Source: an uncultured Bacteroidota bacterium (GTDB lineage Bacteria; Bacteroidota; Bacteroidia; Bacteroidales; UBA10428). From it: a stretch of DNA of 64,000 nucleotides. This document shows positions 3,396-32,921 of this stretch, piece by piece (positions within the stretch are counted from its first letter, which is position 1; the number at the start of each line of letters is the position of its first letter). A program made the translations under genes and the position numbers. The notes beneath the pieces are model-generated. The model searched no databases and had not been told where the DNA came from. It saw only the letters and a program-made list of their open reading frames with translations. The stretch is from contig CAVTDR010000002.1 in the NCBI GenBank assembly GCA_963733535.1, positions 593,678 to 657,677 of the forward strand. Reading direction: 5' to 3'.

Positions 3396-5018
3396 TTACA
3401 TGCGGTAAATGCCATTTTTCGGTTCCGGATATGGACGGTTGAGCGAAATTTGAATGCCAAGAGCCAATGTATGCCTGATTAACAATGGATCTATAATGCC
3501 ATCGTCCCATAATCTTGAAGTGCTATACCATGGCGAACTTTCCAATTCATATTGTTCAGAGATTTCTGTCTTCATACCCGACAAATCTTGCTCTGAACTG
3601 CCGTTTTCCCTGATTGTCCCTAATACACTTGCTGCCTGTTCGGCCCCCATAACAGCGGTGCGTGACAGGGGACATGTAAATAAAAACCTTGGATTATAGG
3701 CTCTGCCAGCCATTGCATAATTTCCTGCCCCAAACGATCCTCCAGTAATGATTGTGAATTTCGGTACCGTTGCTGTGGCAACAGCATGAACCAGTTTTGC
3801 TCCGTCTTTAACAATTCCTCCGTGTTCTGCCTCACGGCCCACCATAAAACCAGTAATGTGTTGGAGAAAAACGATGGGTATTTTTCTATAATTGCATAAT
3901 TCAATAAAGTGCGTTGCTTTAAGTGCCGATTCGGCATGAATGACCCCATAATTGGCCACAATACCTACCGGATATCCCTTGATACAGGCAAATCCGGTGA
4001 CCATTGTTTTTCCATAACCCGATTTGAATTCATGAAATCTGCTACCATCTACTATCCGTGCTATAACTTCATGGGGATCAGGGTTTTCCCGTACTGTTTG
4101 AGGTAAAATTCCATAAAGCTCTAAAGGATCGTATGCAGGTTCCTCACTTTCCTGCATGTGAAGATGCTGTTTAAGGGGCAAAGGGAGTGTTTCAAAAATC
4201 GATCTGCAAATGCTGAGTGCATGTTCATCATTCATGGCGAGATGGTCAGCCACACCGGATATGGTTGTATGTACAAGGGCTCCTCCCAGTTCTTCTGCTG
4301 AAATCTCCTCACCTATTGCTGCATTTACGAGTGGAGGGCCACCCAAAAAAATAGTTCCCTGATTTCGTACAATAATGGTTTCTTCACTCATGGCAGGAAT
4401 GTATGCACCCCCGGCAGTACAGGATCCCATAACTACAGCAATTTGCGGAATAGAGGCTGCCGAGAGAACCGACTGATTATAAAAAATCCTCCCGAAATCG
4501 TTTTTATCCGCAAAAACCCGGGCTTGTTCGGGAAGATAAATACCCCCCGAATCAACCAGATATACACACGGTAAATTGTTTTCATGCGCAATTTCCTGTG
4601 CCCTCAGGTGTTTCTTAATGGTTTCAGCTACATATGTGCCTCCCTTAACCGTTGCATCGTTGGCAACAATAATGGCTTCATGTCCATGAATCACTCCAAT
4701 TCCTGTAATGATGCCTGCCCCCGGAAAATTGTTTTGATACTGGTTGAATGCTGCCAATGGGGATAATTCCAGAAATGCGGTATTCCGGTCAATGAGCAAA
4801 TCAATTCGTTGTCGCGCGGTTAATTTACCTTTTTCCTTGTGCAACCTGAGTTTTTCGGGTCCTCCTCCATGTGAAACTTTTCGTATTGCCTGGTATAATT
4901 CATCTACTGCAAGTCTGTAGTTTTTTTTCCGGTCTTTGAATGATGCTGTTTCCGTTTTGATATATGATCGGATCGGTTCCAAGGGAGTTTGTTCATTTTG
5001 CTGATTAACACACCCCAT
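3396..5018 (-). CDS. liuB: Carboxyltransferase subunit (3-methylcrotonyl-CoA carboxylase beta)
   Basis: KGKLTARQRI, ANDATVKGGTY, KKHLRAQEIA, GSCTAGGAY, GGSFGAGNYAM, SRLWDDGIIDP. Start uncertain (5018 or 5042). Confidence 0.9.
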   Translation of the reverse strand: MGCVNQQNEQTPLEPIRSYIKTETASFKDRKKNYRLAVDELYQAIRKVSHGGGPEKLRLHKEKGKLTARQRIDLLIDRNTAFLELSPLAAFNQYQNNFPGAGIITGIGVIHGHEAIIVANDATVKGGTYVAETIKKHLRAQEIAHENNLPCVYLVDSGGIYLPEQARVFADKNDFGRIFYNQSVLSAASIPQIAVVMGSCTAGGAYIPAMSEETIIVRNQGTIFLGGPPLVNAAIGEEISAEELGGALVHTTISGVADHLAMNDEHALSICRSIFETLPLPLKQHLHMQESEEPAYDPLELYGILPQTVRENPDPHEVIARIVDGSRFHEFKSGYGKTMVTGFACIKGYPVGIVANYGVIHAESALKATHFIELCNYRKIPIVFLQHITGFMVGREAEHGGIVKDGAKLVHAVATATVPKFTIITGGSFGAGNYAMAGRAYNPRFLFTCPLSRTAVMGAEQAASVLGTIRENGSSEQDLSGMKTEISEQYELESSPWYSTSRLWDDGIIDPLLIRHTLALGIQISLNRPYPEPKNGIYRM

Positions 5019-5417: not shown

Positions 5418-6188
5418 ATGGATGCACTTTTGGACAAGCCCGTTGAGAATCAGGAACAACTTCCTGTTGAAACACCACCATCTTTTGAAGGATCACGGTT
5501 CAGGAAAATCCTGAAAAAAGTCGCAGGATATGCGAAATGGATGGTTATTGGTTTTTTTGGTTCTACCCTGCTGGTAGTAATTCTGTTTTCATTTATTAAT
5601 CCACCTGTTACACCGCTCATGGTAAAAAGAGCGCTGATCAGAAAAAGTAATGGCGAATTTACAGGCATTCACAAGAGTTGGGTGTCATACCGCAATATCT
5701 CGCCGCATATGATACAGGCTGTTGTTGCAGCCGAAGACAACCGGTTTAATGAGCATTGGGGCATAGATGTGGAAGCGGTTCAAAAAGCAGTTGATTATAA
5801 CAAAAAACACCGGCGCAAAAGGGGTGCAAGCACCATATCCCAACAAGTAGCAAAAAATGTATTCTTATGGCCCGCACGCTCATATATAAGAAAGGGATTT
5901 GAATTGTATTTCACTGTTTTAATTGAAACAGTATGGAGCAAAAAGCGGATTATGGTTGTATATCTCAATGTTATGGAAACAGGAGATGGCCTATATGGTG
6001 CAGAAGCTGCTGCACAGAAATATTTTCATAAAAAGGCATCACAACTTACCCGGGGAGAAGCAGCACTGATCGCTGCATGCCTCCCAAATCCCCGTCAGAG
6101 AAATCCAGCACGGCCCACTTCCTATTTATTGAGAAGACAAGCAAGGATTTTAAATATTATGCGCAAAATAGGACCCGTACAATTCTAA
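5418..6188 (+). CDS. mtgA: Monofunctional peptidoglycan transglycosylase (GT51)
   Basis: AAEDNRFNEHWG, RGASTISQQVAKN, RKGFE, N-terminal TM helix. Confidence 0.93.
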   Translation: MDALLDKPVENQEQLPVETPPSFEGSRFRKILKKVAGYAKWMVIGFFGSTLLVVILFSFINPPVTPLMVKRALIRKSNGEFTGIHKSWVSYRNISPHMIQAVVAAEDNRFNEHWGIDVEAVQKAVDYNKKHRRKRGASTISQQVAKNVFLWPARSYIRKGFELYFTVLIETVWSKKRIMVVYLNVMETGDGLYGAEAAAQKYFHKKASQLTRGEAALIAACLPNPRQRNPARPTSYLLRRQARILNIMRKIGPVQF

Positions 6189-6287
6189 GAAGTACTCTTT
6201 CTCAAAATCCTGATTTTAATCATAAAACCTGATCCTTTCAGGTGGACATAATATTGATCAAAATGTTAATTTTGGTGTTATTCAATT

Positions 6288-9134
6288 ATGCCTCAAATTA
6301 TTTATTACAAAATCTTCATTATGATTATGAAAAACATAAAGCACCTTGTTTATGGAGTTGTCGTAATGCTTATTCTGGTATCCTGTACCAAAAAGGCTTC
6401 TGACAAATTATCCATCAATTTTGAAAAGTATACCTTGCCCAATGGTTTGGAGGTAATTCTGCATCAGGATACATCTGACCCCATTGTAGCTACAACAATC
6501 ATGTATCACGTTGGCAGCAGCCGGGAAGAAGTTGGTAAAACCGGTTTTGCACATCTGTTTGAACATATGTTGTTTCAGGAATCAGAGCACATTCCGCAGG
6601 ATCAGTTTTTCAAAAAAATACAAAATGTAGGCGGAACCTTAAACGGTTTCACTTCCAATGATATTACCACCTATTATGAAGTGGTGCCGAAAAATGCACT
6701 CGAATTGATATTGTGGATGGAATCGGACCGTATGGGTTATTTTGTAAATACAATTACACCCAATGCTTTTTCCGTTCAGCAGAATGTGGTTCAGAATGAA
6801 AAACGCCAAAGGGTAGACAATGTTCCTTTCGGACATACCGATTATGTAATTGACAAGAATCTTTGGCCTGCAGGACATCCTTACAACTGGCAGGTAATCG
6901 GAGAAATGGCCGATCTGCAGAAAGCTACTATTGCTGATGTTAAGTCCTTTTATGAAAAATTTTACGGACCCAACAATGCAACCCTGGTATTGGCTGGAGA
7001 TTTTGATAAAGACTGTGCCAAAGTCCTGATTGAAAAATATTTTGCCGAAATCAAATCGCATGGTGATGTTCCCAAACGGACACCTATTGCATCCAATCTT
7101 TCTGAAACCAAGAAACTCTTTCACGAAGACAATCTGGCCACTGTTCCTGAATTGAATATGGCCTGGGCAAGTCCCGAAGAATTCAGCAAAGAATCGTATG
7201 CCATGAATTATCTGTCACGGATTCTGGCATCCGGAAAAAAAGCACCGCTTTACCGGGTATTGGTTAAAGATAAACAATTGACTTCCGAAGTAAACGCATG
7301 GAATTATGCCATGGAACTGGGTGGACGTTTTACCATTAACATACGCGCCAACGAAGGAGTTTCTCTGGATGATATGGATAAAGGTGTAAAGGAAGCTTTT
7401 GAATTGTTTGAAAAGGAAGGAATTACGCAGAAAGATATCGACAGGGTGAAAGCGTTGATTGAAACTGAATTTTACGACAATATCAATAATGTATTCAATA
7501 AAGCGCTTCAACTGGCCTACTATAATACTATGAAGGATGACCCGGGCTTCATTGAAAAAGATATCGAAAACATGAAATCGGTTACGATTGAAGATGTGAA
7601 AGCAGCTTACAATAAGTATTTAAAAGACAAGCCGGCGATCATCACCAGCTTTGTTCCCAAGGGCAAAAGCGCATTCATTGTGGCCAATTCGGTTAATGCA
7701 GGCGTTGTGGAAGAGAAGGTAAGTGAAGCTGTTCAGGCAGAAATCGCTGCCGTTTCAACAAGCGATTCCATTGCAAAAACGCCTTCTGCGATCGATCGGT
7801 CAAAGGAACCTATGGTTGGATCTGATCCTCACATAAAAATTCCTGCTGTTTGGAAAGAAGAATTAAGCAACGGATTAAAAATCAGAGGAATCCAGCACGA
7901 TGAACTTCCTATGGTTACCTTTGAACTGGCTGTAGATGGTGGATTATTCCTTGATGAACCTACCAAACCAGGTGTTGCCAATCTGATCAGCGATATGATG
8001 AGTGAAGGTACCAAAAACAAAACGCCTGAGGAACTTGAAGAAGAAGTTGAGTTGCTGGGTGCCCAAATTCAATGGTATACCACACGTGAAGAAATCGTTG
8101 TAAATGTCAGTTGCTTATCCAGAAATTTCGAGCAAGTGATGGCATTGGTTGAAGAAATGCTTCTGGAACCCCGTTGGGACAGCCTGCAATTTGAACTGGC
8201 AAAGAAGAGAACCATCAATAATATCGAACAACGTGAAGCCGATCCGCGTTATCTTGCTTCCAATGCAATTTACAAGTTATTATATGGCCCTTCGCACATT
8301 TTTTCGTCTGAAGTTACCGGCACCAAAGAATCTGTTGCGAAAATCACAATAGATGATCTGAAAACATTCTATAACAAGAATTTTTCACCTTCGGTTTCCC
8401 GTTTCAATATAGCCGGAAATGTAACACAGGAACAGGTTGCAAAAACGCTTGCTTCTCTCGATAAAAACTGGAAACAGAAAGATGTTGTTTTCCCCAGTTA
8501 CACGCCTGCTCCCGCAACCAACAAAACAACCATTTACTTTATCGATGTTCCGGGTGCTCAGCAATCGGTTGTTTATGCCGGTATGTTATCGATTCCACGT
8601 ACCAATCCTGATTTTTATGCAGCAACTGTAATGAATTACAAATTGGGAGGATCTTTTAACGGCATATTGAATTTAATTCTTAGGGAGGAAAAGGCATTTA
8701 CCTATGGTGCTTCATCCAGTATTACATCTATGAAAAATCCAGCTCCCTATCTTGCGAATACCAGCGTCAGGTCGAATGCAACTTTCGAAACGGTTGAAAT
8801 ATTTAAAAACAGTTTTGAAACCTATCGCCAGGGCATAGCAGAAGAAGATCTGACATTCACAAGAAACTCCTTAATTAAATCGAATATGCGGCGGTTTGAA
8901 ACCATTAACAATCTTTTGTCGATGCTTTCAAATATCAGCAAATACAATCTTCCTGATGATTATGTTCAACAGGAGGAAAATGTTGTTCGTAACATGACTG
9001 CTGATCAGCATAAACAACTGGCTCAAAAATATCTTGTTCCCGACCAAATGATTTATGTAATCGCTGGTGATGCTGCAACGCAGCTAAAAAGCCTTGAAAA
9101 GGCAGGTTTTGGAAAGCCGGTTTTGATGAAGTGA
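6288..9134 (+). CDS. M16B zinc protease, two-module lipoprotein
   Basis: HLFEH (HxxEH) motif, LPNGLEVILH, second M16 module starting LSNGLKI, lipobox LVSC. True start may be 6327. Confidence 0.9.
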   Translation: MPQIIYYKIFIMIMKNIKHLVYGVVVMLILVSCTKKASDKLSINFEKYTLPNGLEVILHQDTSDPIVATTIMYHVGSSREEVGKTGFAHLFEHMLFQESEHIPQDQFFKKIQNVGGTLNGFTSNDITTYYEVVPKNALELILWMESDRMGYFVNTITPNAFSVQQNVVQNEKRQRVDNVPFGHTDYVIDKNLWPAGHPYNWQVIGEMADLQKATIADVKSFYEKFYGPNNATLVLAGDFDKDCAKVLIEKYFAEIKSHGDVPKRTPIASNLSETKKLFHEDNLATVPELNMAWASPEEFSKESYAMNYLSRILASGKKAPLYRVLVKDKQLTSEVNAWNYAMELGGRFTINIRANEGVSLDDMDKGVKEAFELFEKEGITQKDIDRVKALIETEFYDNINNVFNKALQLAYYNTMKDDPGFIEKDIENMKSVTIEDVKAAYNKYLKDKPAIITSFVPKGKSAFIVANSVNAGVVEEKVSEAVQAEIAAVSTSDSIAKTPSAIDRSKEPMVGSDPHIKIPAVWKEELSNGLKIRGIQHDELPMVTFELAVDGGLFLDEPTKPGVANLISDMMSEGTKNKTPEELEEEVELLGAQIQWYTTREEIVVNVSCLSRNFEQVMALVEEMLLEPRWDSLQFELAKKRTINNIEQREADPRYLASNAIYKLLYGPSHIFSSEVTGTKESVAKITIDDLKTFYNKNFSPSVSRFNIAGNVTQEQVAKTLASLDKNWKQKDVVFPSYTPAPATNKTTIYFIDVPGAQQSVVYAGMLSIPRTNPDFYAATVMNYKLGGSFNGILNLILREEKAFTYGASSSITSMKNPAPYLANTSVRSNATFETVEIFKNSFETYRQGIAEEDLTFTRNSLIKSNMRRFETINNLLSMLSNISKYNLPDDYVQQEENVVRNMTADQHKQLAQKYLVPDQMIYVIAGDAATQLKSLEKAGFGKPVLMK

Positions 9135-30137: not shown

Positions 30138-30206
30138 CCCGCATCGCTTGCTGAGTCGATAATTGCTTAATTTTTTCATTTTTTTTTCTTTGTTAAGCAA
30201 AAATTA

Positions 30207-30214
30207 TATCTTTG
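30207..30214 (+). promoter_or_regulatory. Bacteroidota -7 promoter element for the tRNA
   Basis: TATCTTTG matches TAnnTTTG, about 50 bp upstream of the tRNA. Confidence 0.65.
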
Positions 30215-30261
30215 CGCACTCTAAAAGATACACCGGATATATTTATGTATCGGTGGTCTAT

Positions 30262-30335
30262 GGCGAGGTAGCTCAGCTGGTTAGAGCGCATGATTCATAA
30301 TCATGAGGTCGGCAGTTCAATCCTGCCTCTCGCTA
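30262..30335 (+). tRNA. tRNA-Met (CAT), elongator type
   Basis: Cloverleaf: acceptor GGCGAGG/TCTCGCT, D arm GCTC/GAGC, anticodon arm CATGA-TTCATAA-TCATG, T arm GGCAG-TTCAATC-CTGCC. CCA is not fully encoded. Confidence 0.95.
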
Positions 30336-30476
30336 CAACAAAAAATCACCCCTCAACCCGGCATCAGCCGGGTTTTTTGTTTTGCCTATGGCAAGTGCCA
30401 TGTTCACATGAGCACTTGCCATAGGCAAAACAAAATAAACCTCACGCAGTGAGGTTGAGGGGTGATTTTTTGTTGT
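30335..30476. repeat. 142-bp four-armed (cruciform) palindromic element abutting the tRNA 3' end
   Basis: Perfect 22-bp outer IR (30335-30356/30455-30476), perfect 24-bp central IR (30375-30398/30412-30435), and two side hairpins. Confidence 0.9.
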
Positions 30477-30636
30477 GAAGCTAAGCTATGCGATGATTAG
30501 GGCGGCAATAATTCAATAAAACTATAGCAAGAGATGTTTGAATGGGTGGTGTACTAGTCTTCGACATTTTATATTGGAATCAAATGAATTTTCATATTCT
30601 TATTGTTAATTGGCTGAAATAAAATATCTTTACAAA

Positions 30637-30732
30637 ATATACTTAATATGATACAACTAAATATACTTAATACGACACAACCAGATATACTTAAAGTAAT
30701 ACAGCATTATTTACTTAAAGAAATACAGATGT
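30637..30732 (+). repeat. Four 24-bp direct repeats in the fic leader
   Basis: ATATACTTAATATGATACAACTAA / ATATACTTAATACGACACAACCAG / ATATACTTAAAGTAATACAGCATT / ATTTACTTAAAGAAATACAGATGT. Confidence 0.85.
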
Positions 30733-30756
30733 TGATGTAAATACTATAAGGCAAAT

Positions 30757-32289
30757 ATGGCAACCCCTCCCGAAAAACTCGCAGAATCTTTGGCTGAACT
30801 TCAAAAACTTCAAAACAACAGAGGCATAGCTATCATCAAGGCAGATGACTTGTCTCGGACACATAAAGAACGTTTGCTTGAAAATGGTTTCATACAAGAA
30901 GTAATAAAAGGTTGGTATATTTCTCATCCTCCCGAAGAGAAAAGTGGGGACACAACTTCATGGTATGTTTCATTTTGGAGCTTTATAGCATCTTATATAG
31001 ATTCCCGCTTTGCTAAGGAGTGGTGTTTATCTCCTGAACAGTCATTATCGCTGCATAGCGGTAATGTTACAGTTCCAAAACAACTGCTTGTTCGTTCGCC
31101 CAAGGCTTCCAATAACCGAGTAAATCTAATTCACGATTGTTCGGTATTTGATTCTAAAGTCGAAATTCCTTCTAATAACGACCGTATTGAAATCAACGGA
31201 GTTCAGACCTATTCTCTGACATTGGGTCTTGTTACGGTATCAGCCGATTTCTTCATCCGACAACCAACCGATGCCCGCATTTGCTTGGCAATGGTAAAGG
31301 GTTCATCGGAAGTTTTGGCAAAACTTCTGGATGGAGGGAAAAGTGTTGTTGCAGGACGTTTGGCTGGGGCGTTTCGGAATATCGGTAAAGACAAAGTAGC
31401 GGATGATATTATCAAAACTATGAAATCAGCCGGATATGATGTTCGGGAAACTGACCCTTTTGATGATAAGTTACCTGTTTTGCTCAATAGTCGTGAAGTA
31501 TCACCTTACGTCAATCGTATTAAAATTATATGGGCACAAATGCGCCAAACTGTTATTGATAACTTTCCAAAAGCTTCGGAATCTATGCCTGATGTTGAAG
31601 CGTATTTGAAACAGGTTGAAGAAAACTATAAGAGTGATGCCTATCATTCTCTTTCAATTGAAGGATACCGTGTGAATACTGAACTGATTGAGAAAGTAGC
31701 CAAAGGGAATTGGAATCCTGAGAGAAATGAAACAGATAAACAACAAAAAGATGCAATGGCCGCAAGAGGTTATTATCAGGCCTTTCAAGTGGTTAAGAAA
31801 AGCATCAAATCAATACTTGAAGGTAAAAACTCAGGTGAAGTTGTTAATGATGATCATGGTACCTGGTACCGGGAATTATTCGCCCCAAGTGTAACCGCGG
31901 GTCTTGCAAAAGCATCTGATTTAGCCGGATATCGAAATGGTCCCGTTTATATCCGTGGTGCAATGCATACACCTCCAAATCATGAGGCAGTTCGCGATGC
32001 CATGCCTACATTATTTGAGTTGCTTAACGAAGAAAAGGAGGCATGTGTTCGAGTAGTTTTAGGTCATTTTATTTTTGTTTATATCCATCCTTATTTTGAT
32101 GGTAACGGTAGAATGGCAAGATTTTTAATGAATGCTATGCTTGCATCGGGTAATTATCCCTGGACAATAATAAAGGTTGATGATCGCGACACTTATATGG
32201 CTTCATTAGAGAAGGCTAGTGTAAATAATGATATAACAGATTTTACAAAATTTATCGCCGGATTATTGAACTCTGGTAAAGCAAGTTAG
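30757..32289 (+). CDS. Fic-domain protein with N-terminal AbiEi-like region
   Basis: Fic motif HPYFDGNGRMAR; inhibitory-helix-like SLSIEG upstream of it; N-terminus LENGFIQEVIKGWY...LSPEQSLSLHSG..VPKQLLV resembles AbiEi antitoxins. Confidence 0.88.
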   Translation: MATPPEKLAESLAELQKLQNNRGIAIIKADDLSRTHKERLLENGFIQEVIKGWYISHPPEEKSGDTTSWYVSFWSFIASYIDSRFAKEWCLSPEQSLSLHSGNVTVPKQLLVRSPKASNNRVNLIHDCSVFDSKVEIPSNNDRIEINGVQTYSLTLGLVTVSADFFIRQPTDARICLAMVKGSSEVLAKLLDGGKSVVAGRLAGAFRNIGKDKVADDIIKTMKSAGYDVRETDPFDDKLPVLLNSREVSPYVNRIKIIWAQMRQTVIDNFPKASESMPDVEAYLKQVEENYKSDAYHSLSIEGYRVNTELIEKVAKGNWNPERNETDKQQKDAMAARGYYQAFQVVKKSIKSILEGKNSGEVVNDDHGTWYRELFAPSVTAGLAKASDLAGYRNGPVYIRGAMHTPPNHEAVRDAMPTLFELLNEEKEACVRVVLGHFIFVYIHPYFDGNGRMARFLMNAMLASGNYPWTIIKVDDRDTYMASLEKASVNNDITDFTKFIAGLLNSGKAS

Positions 32290-32301
32290 AAGTGCTTAAC
32301 C
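32275..32301. repeat. REP-like hairpin, copy 1
   Basis: GGTAAAGCA-N9-TGCTTAACC; contains the fic stop codon. Confidence 0.6.
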
Positions 32302-32545
32302 TTTGTATGTATTCATTATTGAAAGCTCCGAATAAAATCCGGTTCAAACGGATTTAAGGAGCGGAAAATGGTTACATAGAAATTCATTCTACCGATATTG
32401 TCTATAAACCTATAGACAAGCTTATCAGCTGGCCGATTATAACTATAAATGATGCACATTCATTGTTTCGGAAAAACTGGGATTCCATGAAAATAGGCAA
32501 AGTGACAAATTTGCACTTTTCAAAGTTAAAATATGGAAACACACG

Positions 32546-32579
32546 CACGCAGTGAGGTTGAGGGGTGATTTTTTGTTGT
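32546..32579 (+). repeat. Exact direct copy of the right arm of the tRNA-linked element
   Basis: CACGCAGTGAGGTTGAGGGGTGATTTTTTGTTGT is identical to 30443-30476. Confidence 0.9.
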
Positions 32580-32921
32580 ATAGCACCCCCCTTATATTTG
32601 TTGATTGGTTGATTGGTTGATTGGTGATCACGCAGTAATCTCTCCATTATATTGCAACACTCATTGCTTGAAGTTGAACGGTAATTATTTCTGTAAGGCC
32701 CCCAACGAGGAACCACTCACTTATTCCCGATCTCACTACAAAGAGACAGTTGGGAATCTCCAATCACTTTTAATTCAAATCAGAATTTCTTTAGATTTTA
32801 CGATTTAGTTTGAAGAATTAGGACAATTATCTTAATTGTTTGAAAAAACCTTGAACAAAATTGATAATCGCACAGTTTATCAGTATTATACTCTTCAAGT
32901 TCAACAAAAACCACCTGCATC

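Follow-up and report, generated by a model that had tools for sequence, protein, structure and literature searches.

Transfer RNA (tRNA) genes are classic landing sites of genomic islands, where the site is usually taken to be the tRNA alone, and direct repeats of the tRNA 3' end are the hallmark of ordinary tyrosine-integrase insertion. NBU1/NBU2-type Bacteroides elements and the integrase-less remnants that resemble cis-mobilizable elements (CIMEs), as in ICESt1/3, target tRNAs and accrete in tandem. The attC site of integrons is a single imperfect hairpin with R''/L'' and L'/R' boxes and extrahelical bases, in a system that also has intI, attI and Pc; attP(+) of the CTX phage is a forked hairpin of inverted repeats, used by XerCD as folded single-stranded DNA. 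Intergenic palindromes with inverted arms include miniature transposable elements with inverted repeats (MITEs), repetitive extragenic palindromes (REP, with BIME and REPIN), ERIC and Correia-type repeats. Integrase-less remnants accreting in tandem are also described for the Dehalococcoides ssrA islands (PMC3146451). Here we analyze a stretch of 64,000 nt (the window) from an uncultured bacterium of the order Bacteroidales (assembly GCA_963733535.1, contig CAVTDR010000002.1, positions 593,678 to 657,677), in which a tRNA-Met gene is followed by a palindrome of 142 nt able to fold as a cruciform, whose right arm recurs beyond a fic gene. A preliminary description of this locus had proposed that the cruciform is a recombination site or a non-autonomous element that, acted on in trans, captures cargo next to tRNAs.

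The cruciform is one copy of a widespread, apparently undescribed family of units that stand immediately behind Bacteroidales tRNA genes, at places where accessory genes such as fic accumulate; no description of such a unit was found in the literature outside subscription journals and supplements, where the related papers included a survey of MITEs (PMC11602168) and one on Prevotella repeats (PMC4755523). The descriptive part is solid: tRNA-tail units form a family in which the DNA fold is conserved and a mimic of the tRNA T-arm is present, and accessory DNA and extra unit copies are found behind them. The mechanism is what we infer from these features.

Folded DNA units behind tRNA genes

The outer stem (X/X') of the tRNA-Met module begins at the last two bases of the tRNA (30335). 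Folded as single-stranded DNA, the 142 nt (30335-30476) reach -69.1 kcal/mol, with the outer stem and three hairpins, whereas 200 dinucleotide shuffles gave -18.1 ± 2.9 kcal/mol (z -17.7) and none was equally stable. In a repeat search, the outer arms (30335-30358 and 30453-30476) and the central arms (30375-30398 and 30412-30435) were each 100% identical over 24 nt, and a 24-nt probe had three matches in the window against none in 100 shuffles. The minimum free energy (MFE) structure pairs 20 bp in the outer stem and 8 bp in each side hairpin, so that the outer stem of 22 bp given earlier lies between the MFE and repeat-arm figures. The tRNA-anchored four-way fold of the preliminary description is thus borne out by the repeat search and by folding against shuffles; the 24-bp central stem, its CATG-TTCA-CATG apex and the bulged A at 30411 are all as it stated, and the repeat search also recovered the exact duplication of the last 34 nt at 32546-32579.

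A complete unit is approximately 190 bp long and consists of the four-way palindromic module and a T-arm-like hairpin, the mini. The module is made of the outer stem, two opposed terminator-like side hairpins, h1 and h2, and a central hairpin with a bulged A on its 3' side. Both h1 and h2 comprise an A-run, a G+C-rich hairpin and a T-run, and h1 with its T-run on the plus strand and h2 with its T-run on the minus strand both pass a simple terminator scan, as predicted terminators. The mini follows X' in 39 of 42 modules (32 by pattern and seven variants by eye) and contains a C-rich run, a GGRAT/ATYCC stem, a conserved loop CAYG(N or GCGAAGCG)ARTA and a tail that repeats the local tRNA sequence from the T-loop onward to its 3' end. 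This tRNA-end copy has 17-18 identical nt in four genomes (G010, G017, G046 and G156) and is decayed in others, the window included (32640-32650). The mini stem varies together with the T-stem of the adjacent tRNA. The parts conserved in sequence across tRNA types are the stem of h1 (CCCGG..., kept family-wide and without variation in all ten Ser-type copies), the apex, which is of the AAGCTTGCTT or the GC-CTTCCTG-GC type, and the loop of the mini. The h2 loops and the mini-loop insertion are often GCGAAGC, an unusually stable DNA mini-hairpin, or C-GNA-G triloops (e.g., L095 5428-5561, L083, L090); in some copies a complementary TTC or TTT form replaces the GNA-type triloop.

A BLAST search of the element against its own genome (G000) returned this locus and no second copy. 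Relatives of the same genus have an equal architecture behind tRNA-Met with a very different sequence, and a covariance model, R1, built from four homologous copies recovers every known copy. With R1, matches were obtained in 19 of 35 genus genomes (E <= 1e-3), in 13 of 22 when only high-quality genomes are counted, and, under stricter filters, in 9 of the 149 further genera that were sampled from the order. These prevalences are lower bounds, since the genome scan gave three units in G000, where direct inspection found at least eight; most of the compared genomes are metagenome-assembled genomes (MAGs). The element is therefore unique in its genome by BLAST, but covarying homologues of it were found through the covariance model.

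Of 42 tabulated best-strand R1 matches, 29 lie on the strand of a complete tRNA gene and start between -2 and +3 nt relative to its 3' end. Ten others come after a tRNA 3' fragment, a mini or a contig-cut tRNA, and the remaining three, which are weak matches, adjoin neither a complete tRNA nor a fragment or mini. The tabulated tRNAs are Met(CAT), Ser(GGA, TGA, CGA), Lys(TTT), Arg(CCG) and Cys(GCA), to which direct inspection of G000 adds Ser(GCT); in other families of the order, six of nine loci adjoin a complete tRNA, Arg(TCT) included. In G000 itself, units stand at Met, Ser-TGA, Ser-GCT, Ser-CGA, Lys-TTT, Cys and Arg-CCG and at a displaced Ser-GGA end. The association with tRNA 3' ends is thus positive at Met, four Ser, Lys, two Arg and Cys genes. 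A motif scan of the genome contigs, with a pattern that proved too narrow, gave three true and three chance matches; in viral contigs, one match was real, L048, a prophage end with the unit as host flank. Four other viral-contig matches (L047, L112-L114) were discarded, having neither module nor tRNA, and a third motif pattern had no match in the viral contigs.

Pairing is conserved at the DNA level. An unconstrained fold gives an outer stem of 12-23 bp and three branches in 32 of 39 copies, the other seven being two parser offsets, three cases of alternative h1/h2 pairing and two truncated copies. In a gap-free comparison anchored at both ends, 13.7 of the 14 outer-stem positions pair when both arms come from one copy, as opposed to 8.2 ± 2.0 when the left arm of one copy is set against the right arm of another (1332 ordered pairs); left arms of different copies are only 48% alike. 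A structure-blind MAFFT alignment of ten Ser-type copies, analyzed with RNAalifold, recovered the four-way junction. Both partners had changed in 34 of the 62 pairs, a number that none of 500 shuffles reached (16.2 ± 2.1), and double changes numbered at most 11 when pair partners were slid along the alignment. The stems therefore covary. The CM-made alignment A3 was left out of these counts because it mixes both strands of the palindrome.

Wobble pairs are nearly absent. In the Ser-type alignment, 3 of 591 cells are G-T pairs; among the MFE pairs of the units, wobble accounts for 25 of 2096 (1.2%), compared with 79 G-U pairs among 1193 (6.6%) in the stems of the genome's 55 tRNAs, the MFE figure being biased by the DNA folding parameters and the alignment count free of that bias. 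To us, this near-absence points to a constraint on how the DNA pairs, or else to copying from one arm to the other, and not to RNA structure. Of 38 copies, 27 have a bulge on the 3' side only (A in 20, T in two, AA in five), located 3-8 bp below the central apex; a bulge on the 5' side only was seen in none. The bulged A first noted in the window is thus a family-wide, strand-asymmetric feature and, because arm-to-arm copying would erase a one-sided bulge, at least this 3'-side bulge looks to be under selection.

Copies resemble each other by tRNA type and not by genome: for 32 of 39, the best match is a copy at the same tRNA type in another genome, and only six have their best match within the same genome, these being tandem copies at one locus. 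On this grouping, the units are old, vertically inherited residents, which speaks against the non-autonomous element proposed earlier in that they are not recently mobile. One relative (G019) has a bare tRNA-Met followed directly by a trailer and terminator, and in another (G001) that same trailer and terminator stand after the mini's decayed tRNA end. In G017, two complete units lie in tandem, the second beginning after the tRNA-end copy of the first mini. In G000, partial extra units that repeat every 121-148 nt come after the first one at Ser-TGA, Ser-GCT and Lys, and Cys has two further partial units. The joints of tandem partial units fall at short C-runs (microhomology), as slippage would give, and the left edge of the repeated right arm differs between arrays (the window, G018, G009, L052); because of these variable edges and microhomology joints, a fixed hairpin cut site does not appear evident in the arrays.

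Other tandem arrangements were also observed. In other families of the order, L110 (G130:C8), positions 6095-6578, holds three complete tandem units with a period of ~180 nt, with no full tRNA within the 13 kb examined, and L109 (G156:C22), positions 4489-4782, holds two with a period of ~175 nt. At G000:C6:1423404-1425336, some 1 kb beyond the tRNA-Ser(GCT) that bears a unit, 11-12 tRNA-Pro(TGG) genes stand in tandem and repeat every 152 bp. At G000:C7:78012-78700, four repeats of 140 bp come after tRNA-Pro(GGG); each contains a tRNA-Pro-like copy, in which the D-arm region is altered, together with a terminator of its own, and an integrase lies ~1.6 kb downstream.

The fic insertion and cargo at other units

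BLAST of the window against a relative, G013 (L043), showed that 30162-30476 and 32546-32592 are adjacent there and that the downstream genes are common to both. Because G013 runs tRNA, module, mini and then the window's downstream genes, what is extra in the window is 2069 bp and one 34-mer. By this synteny, the fic segment is an insertion and G013 its syntenic empty site, the comparison that the preliminary description had suggested. That a Fic gene is enclosed is also borne out, since the open reading frame (ORF) has a Fic domain; that the tRNA 3' end is not duplicated here did not hold, as a degenerate piece resembling a tRNA 3' end follows the second 34-mer, within the mini. The features of the locus are collected in Table 1.

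Table 1. Features at the tRNA-Met locus, in window coordinates.
Feature	Position	Strand	Basis
tRNA-Met(CAT) gene	30262..30336	+	ARAGORN; Rfam RF00005, 66.2 bits
Four-way palindromic module: X/X' outer stem, h1, central hairpin, h2	30335..30476	+	DNA fold; model R1, 144 bits
h1 (AACCCGGC-ATCA-GCCGGGTT) and T-tract, terminator-like for the tRNA	30355..30384	+	Terminator scan
Central hairpin: 24-bp stem, CATG-TTCA-CATG apex, extrahelical A at 30411	30375..30435	+	Repeat search, DNA fold
h2 (AACCTCAC-GCA-GTGAGGTT), minus-strand terminator-like, GNA-type triloop	30438..30456	-	Terminator scan, 30456-30438 and T-rich tail
Accessory insert, 2069 bp	30477..32545	.	Missing from the syntenic G013 locus
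Putative degenerate mini-like piece, left end of insert (GAAGCT...GCAATAATTC)	30477..30527, end approximate	+	By-eye comparison
Three 24-bp direct repeats (ATATACTTAA core) 5' of fic	30632..30718	+	Repeat search; also in G003
fic, 510 aa, SoFic-like	30757..32289	+	Pfam Fic 1.1e-12; PADLOC SoFic 2.4e-23
radC-like (JAB) gene, 5' fragment, truncated, in-frame TAG as fourth codon	32368..32494	+	81% identity to G021:C9
Right arm, second copy (3' half of h2 and X')	32546..32579	+	34/34 identical to 30443-30476
Mini: ATAGCACCCCCC, loop enlarged by (GATTGGTT)n, GGTGATCACGCAGTAATC, decayed tRNA-3'-like tail	32580..32650, end approximate	+	Order and sequence as in G013; family consensus

The mini-like piece at the left end of the insert may be of a foreign type, as it resembles the minis of lineages with an AATTCC T-arm. 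In G003, a fic copy 95% identical to that of the window lies beside the same tRNA, in an island that differs in having an AlpA-like gene and no module; the 24-bp repeats that precede fic are kept along with it there and probably form an operator/promoter array. The radC-like fragment is the first 127 nt of a gene whose intact ORF in G021:C9 matches Pfam RadC (8.5e-35). The 8-nt tandem repeat GATTGGTT that enlarges the mini loop (32596-32625) matches many sites in many genus genomes. Contigs of public reads matching the window were tRNA and fic/radC pieces of relatives. A contig of 172 nt from X1, which may be the source sample, covers 32391-32559 with one mismatch; none of the matched contigs spans either 34-mer or the empty junction. 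Assembly across the 34-bp repeat is plausibly supported by the flanks shared with G013 and by the independent linkage of fic to tRNA-Met in G003.

Accessory DNA is found at other units as well. In G156, from another family, tRNA-Ser(TGA) is followed by a module, a mini, a single gene for a 294-aa secreted protein, a piece of a tRNA 3' end and then another module and mini nearly identical to the first, and the ORF between the units is flanked by 17-18-nt tRNA-end repeats. G046 has three modules within 8 kb, with Mrr-like, AbiEii/AbiEi, DUF4249, leucine-rich repeat and DUF4160/DUF2442 genes between them. Its first module adjoins a tRNA-Met piece that starts in the T-loop; before this piece come a tyrosine integrase of 454 aa and a primase, which belong to an NBU-like mobilizable element. 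G018 has five minis with an ORF6N gene among them. The cargo in G156, G046 and G010 has direct repeats of the tRNA 3' end at its borders.

A different arrangement is seen where a prophage end (with lysis genes) and a 19.4-kb island lie between a tRNA and its displaced 3' end, the unit beyond being host flank. The island (L094, G000:C6:961482-980946) is flanked by a 23-bp repeat of the tRNA-Ser(GGA) 3' end, with the old unit beyond it, and carries GH2, MacB-like permease, hydrolase, beta-lactamase-fold and AraC genes and no integrase. That the units are simply the ends of ordinary integrase islands was rejected, given the islands at tRNA-Arg(ACG) and tRNA-Val(TAC), which have no units, and this tRNA-Ser(GGA) island, which has no integrase and no module at its left end.

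Origin and present role of the units

The explanation that we favor, tentatively, is that the unit derives from a tyrosine-recombinase-type insertion and now serves as an insulated landing pad. The cruciform would be the tail unit that resides at this tRNA-Met gene and would belong to a set of at least eight in the genome. Its module would supply a terminator for the tRNA (h1) and an opposed terminator (h2), and its mini would mimic the tRNA T-arm and continue into a copy of the local tRNA's 3' strand. An original insertion at the tRNA T-loop would account for this displaced 3' copy and for the empty site in a relative. Today, incoming accessory DNA may recombine at the mini's tRNA-like site or at the tRNA itself, with integrases acting in trans, and slippage and deletion between the hairpin-rich repeats may both add unit copies and trim them. 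The SoFic-like fic and the broken radC of the window would be what is left, after decay, of a mobile element lodged between module and mini, and the 34-bp repeat would be the leftover right arm of a duplicated or second unit.

Several observations weigh against this explanation. Integrases are present in all 35 genus genomes, but none of the 17 PF00589 matches of G000 lies in the window, in agreement with the preliminary description, and across the 35 genomes their positions are not consistently near units. The exception is G046, whose unit-adjacent integrase, of the Arm-DNA-bind_5/SAM_5 type, has close homologues in only three of the 35 genomes. Two integrase islands of G000, at tRNA-Arg-ACG and tRNA-Val-TAC, have neither module nor mini. 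Because integrases are neither in the window nor consistently near units, the homologues are rare and ordinary islands lack units, no enzyme is tied to the unit family. The cargo in the window is flanked by the 34-mer and not by a tRNA-end repeat, and the left end of the insert has a mini of foreign type, both 34-mers being native, which simple accretion does not predict. The G019 empty site has 9 nt in common with the beginning of X and so could have arisen by deletion instead of being a virgin site; the prevalence figures are rough, given incomplete MAGs and the sensitivity of the model; and a terminator or insulator role leaves the outer-stem pairing and the one-sided bulge unexplained.

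Two enzyme candidates were set aside. The integrase family of G046 does not explain the units, the homologue loci in G003 and G021 being without a module. A link to Y1/RAYT was rejected, since Y1_Tnp genes occur in 32 of 35 genomes irrespective of unit matches, and the flanks of four Y1 loci in G000 showed no module- or mini-like feature, at least two of them having unrelated REP-like hairpins (e.g., GTCCC..GGGAC). RAYT-like Y1 genes at G000:C6:64739-65083 and C6:1854807-1855151 are flanked by arrays of such hairpins (GTCCC-loop-GGGAC, GCCC-loop-GGGC), unrelated to the tRNA-tail units. The co-occurring tyrosine recombinase or Y1/RAYT gene that had been suggested was thus not recovered: neither an IntI-like nor a Y1/HUH enzyme could be connected with the units.

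The earlier proposal of a folded-DNA recombination site, in which module, mini or both are read as folded single strands in the manner of attC or CTX attP(+), the bulged A sets the strand and a trans-acting recombinase captures cassettes behind tRNAs, is doubtful. It draws on a structure that is kept while the sequence diverges, with covariation that is Watson-Crick only, on an extrahelical bulge confined to one strand in 27 of 38 copies, on the islands of conserved sequence at the apex, h1 and mini loop, and on the many h2 and mini loops that are GNA triloops closed by C-G, GCGAAGC among them. Single-gene, often defense-type cassettes do lie between repeated units in G000, G156, G046 and G018, and the part of the proposal that concerned capture of cargo next to tRNAs stands to the extent that cargo bounded by repeated units is present in the last three. 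However, there is no fixed crossover in the arrays, tRNA-end repeats border the cargo in G156 and G046, as when integrases act on double-stranded DNA, no IntI-like gene lies beside the arrays, the distribution of Y1 genes is independent of the units, and the units are vertically kept. A bolder version would make the units a dedicated, host-maintained capture platform behind Bacteroidales tRNAs, in which a trans recombinase reads the four-way junction and a T-arm decoy strand-specifically through the bulged A and swaps small defense cassettes with the tRNA unharmed, an integron-like function built from different parts; we consider it unlikely. A purely host role, with a conserved double terminator shielding a highly expressed tRNA and its neighbors, copies made by replication slippage and cargo that is incidental because tRNA loci are general hot spots, is quite unlikely: the canonical opposed (predicted) terminators, the orthologous and stable units, the microhomology at tandem joints and the 19.4-kb island and prophage that sit between tRNA and unit, leaving the unit unused, all fit it, but it gives no account of the mini's conserved loop and tRNA-end copy, of the G019 empty site, of the need for outer-stem pairing or of the one-sided bulge.

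The units might also be neutral palindromic scars, old attL-attR remnants whose arm symmetry comes from a mutational process and not from selection. Template-switch "quasipalindrome correction" is a process that keeps arms symmetric, and nearly all changes here are perfect Watson-Crick double changes with hardly any one-sided intermediates, as arm copying would give. Such correction should nevertheless remove bulges, and the 3'-side bulge is kept; h1 and h2, at mirror positions, remain unlike each other; and the h1 stem, apex and mini-loop motifs are conserved across tRNA types and families of the order, all of which makes this origin very unlikely. Least credible of all is an RNA gene, in which the unit, or the minus-strand mini with X and h2, would encode a tRNA-like small RNA (a Y-RNA-like mimic). 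The T-arm-like hairpin in the mini, next to which the terminator h2 follows on the minus strand, would suit it, but G-U pairs are ~5x rarer than in the genome's tRNAs, terminators within the module would cut a full-length transcript, and there was no Rfam family match beyond chance: in an Rfam 15 scan, tRNA alone was above the gathering score, six other hits reaching at most 29.8 bits against 67.

Whatever its origin, a conserved folded DNA unit with a tRNA-arm mimic stands between tRNA and accessory DNA at many tRNAs across the order. If the unit guides or buffers integration, this would explain how defense genes (SoFic-like Fic, AbiE, Mrr) stack up without damage to the tRNA, and the unit would be a natural docking site for genetic tools. 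Even as an insulator or an old scar, it would be a clean example of long-term Watson-Crick-only covariation in DNA, and the units offer a ready marker for island boundaries in Bacteroidales annotation.

Comparison with known systems

Among described systems, tRNA-targeting islands and CIMEs share with the units insertion at the 3' part of a tRNA, the tRNA-end direct repeat and tandem integrase-less pieces with cargo, and an integrase/primase element lies beside one unit array (G046). The direct repeat of the tRNA 3' end that marks an island is present, in that minis end in local tRNA 3' copies and G019 offers an empty site. In contrast to such islands, what recurs here is a unit of 190 bp that combines a conserved four-way fold with a mimic of the T-arm; the units are orthologous across species and occur at many tRNA types, ordinary G000 islands have none, and no integrase family tracks them in the 35 genus genomes.

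The integron attC site is alike in conserving structure over sequence, in its extrahelical base on one strand and in the short, often single-gene cassettes between sites. It differs in that the units fold as a four-way junction and not as a single bulged hairpin, have no intI/attI/Pc platform, are anchored in their arrays at tRNA genes, and border on cargo of mixed orientation whose edges carry tRNA-end repeats. The likeness proposed to CTX attP(+) is that of a recombination site built of inverted repeats as folded single-stranded DNA; here, however, there is no dif-like core and there are no filamentous or single-stranded phage genes.

With MITE, REP, ERIC and Correia-type repeats, the units have in common that they are intergenic palindromes of 100-150 bp with inverted arms. 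Unlike these, the copies within a genome are dissimilar (arms 48% alike, none found by BLAST), number from a few to ~8 and all stand at tRNA 3' ends; the many near-identical copies expected of a MITE, with terminal inverted repeats and a short target duplication, are not seen, and the RAYT-like genes of G000 have their own, different REP-like hairpins. Bidirectional intrinsic terminators resemble h1 and h2 in their A-run, G+C-rich hairpin and T-run, but the three hairpins, the outer stem of 12-23 bp and the one-sided bulge of the units go far beyond what termination needs.

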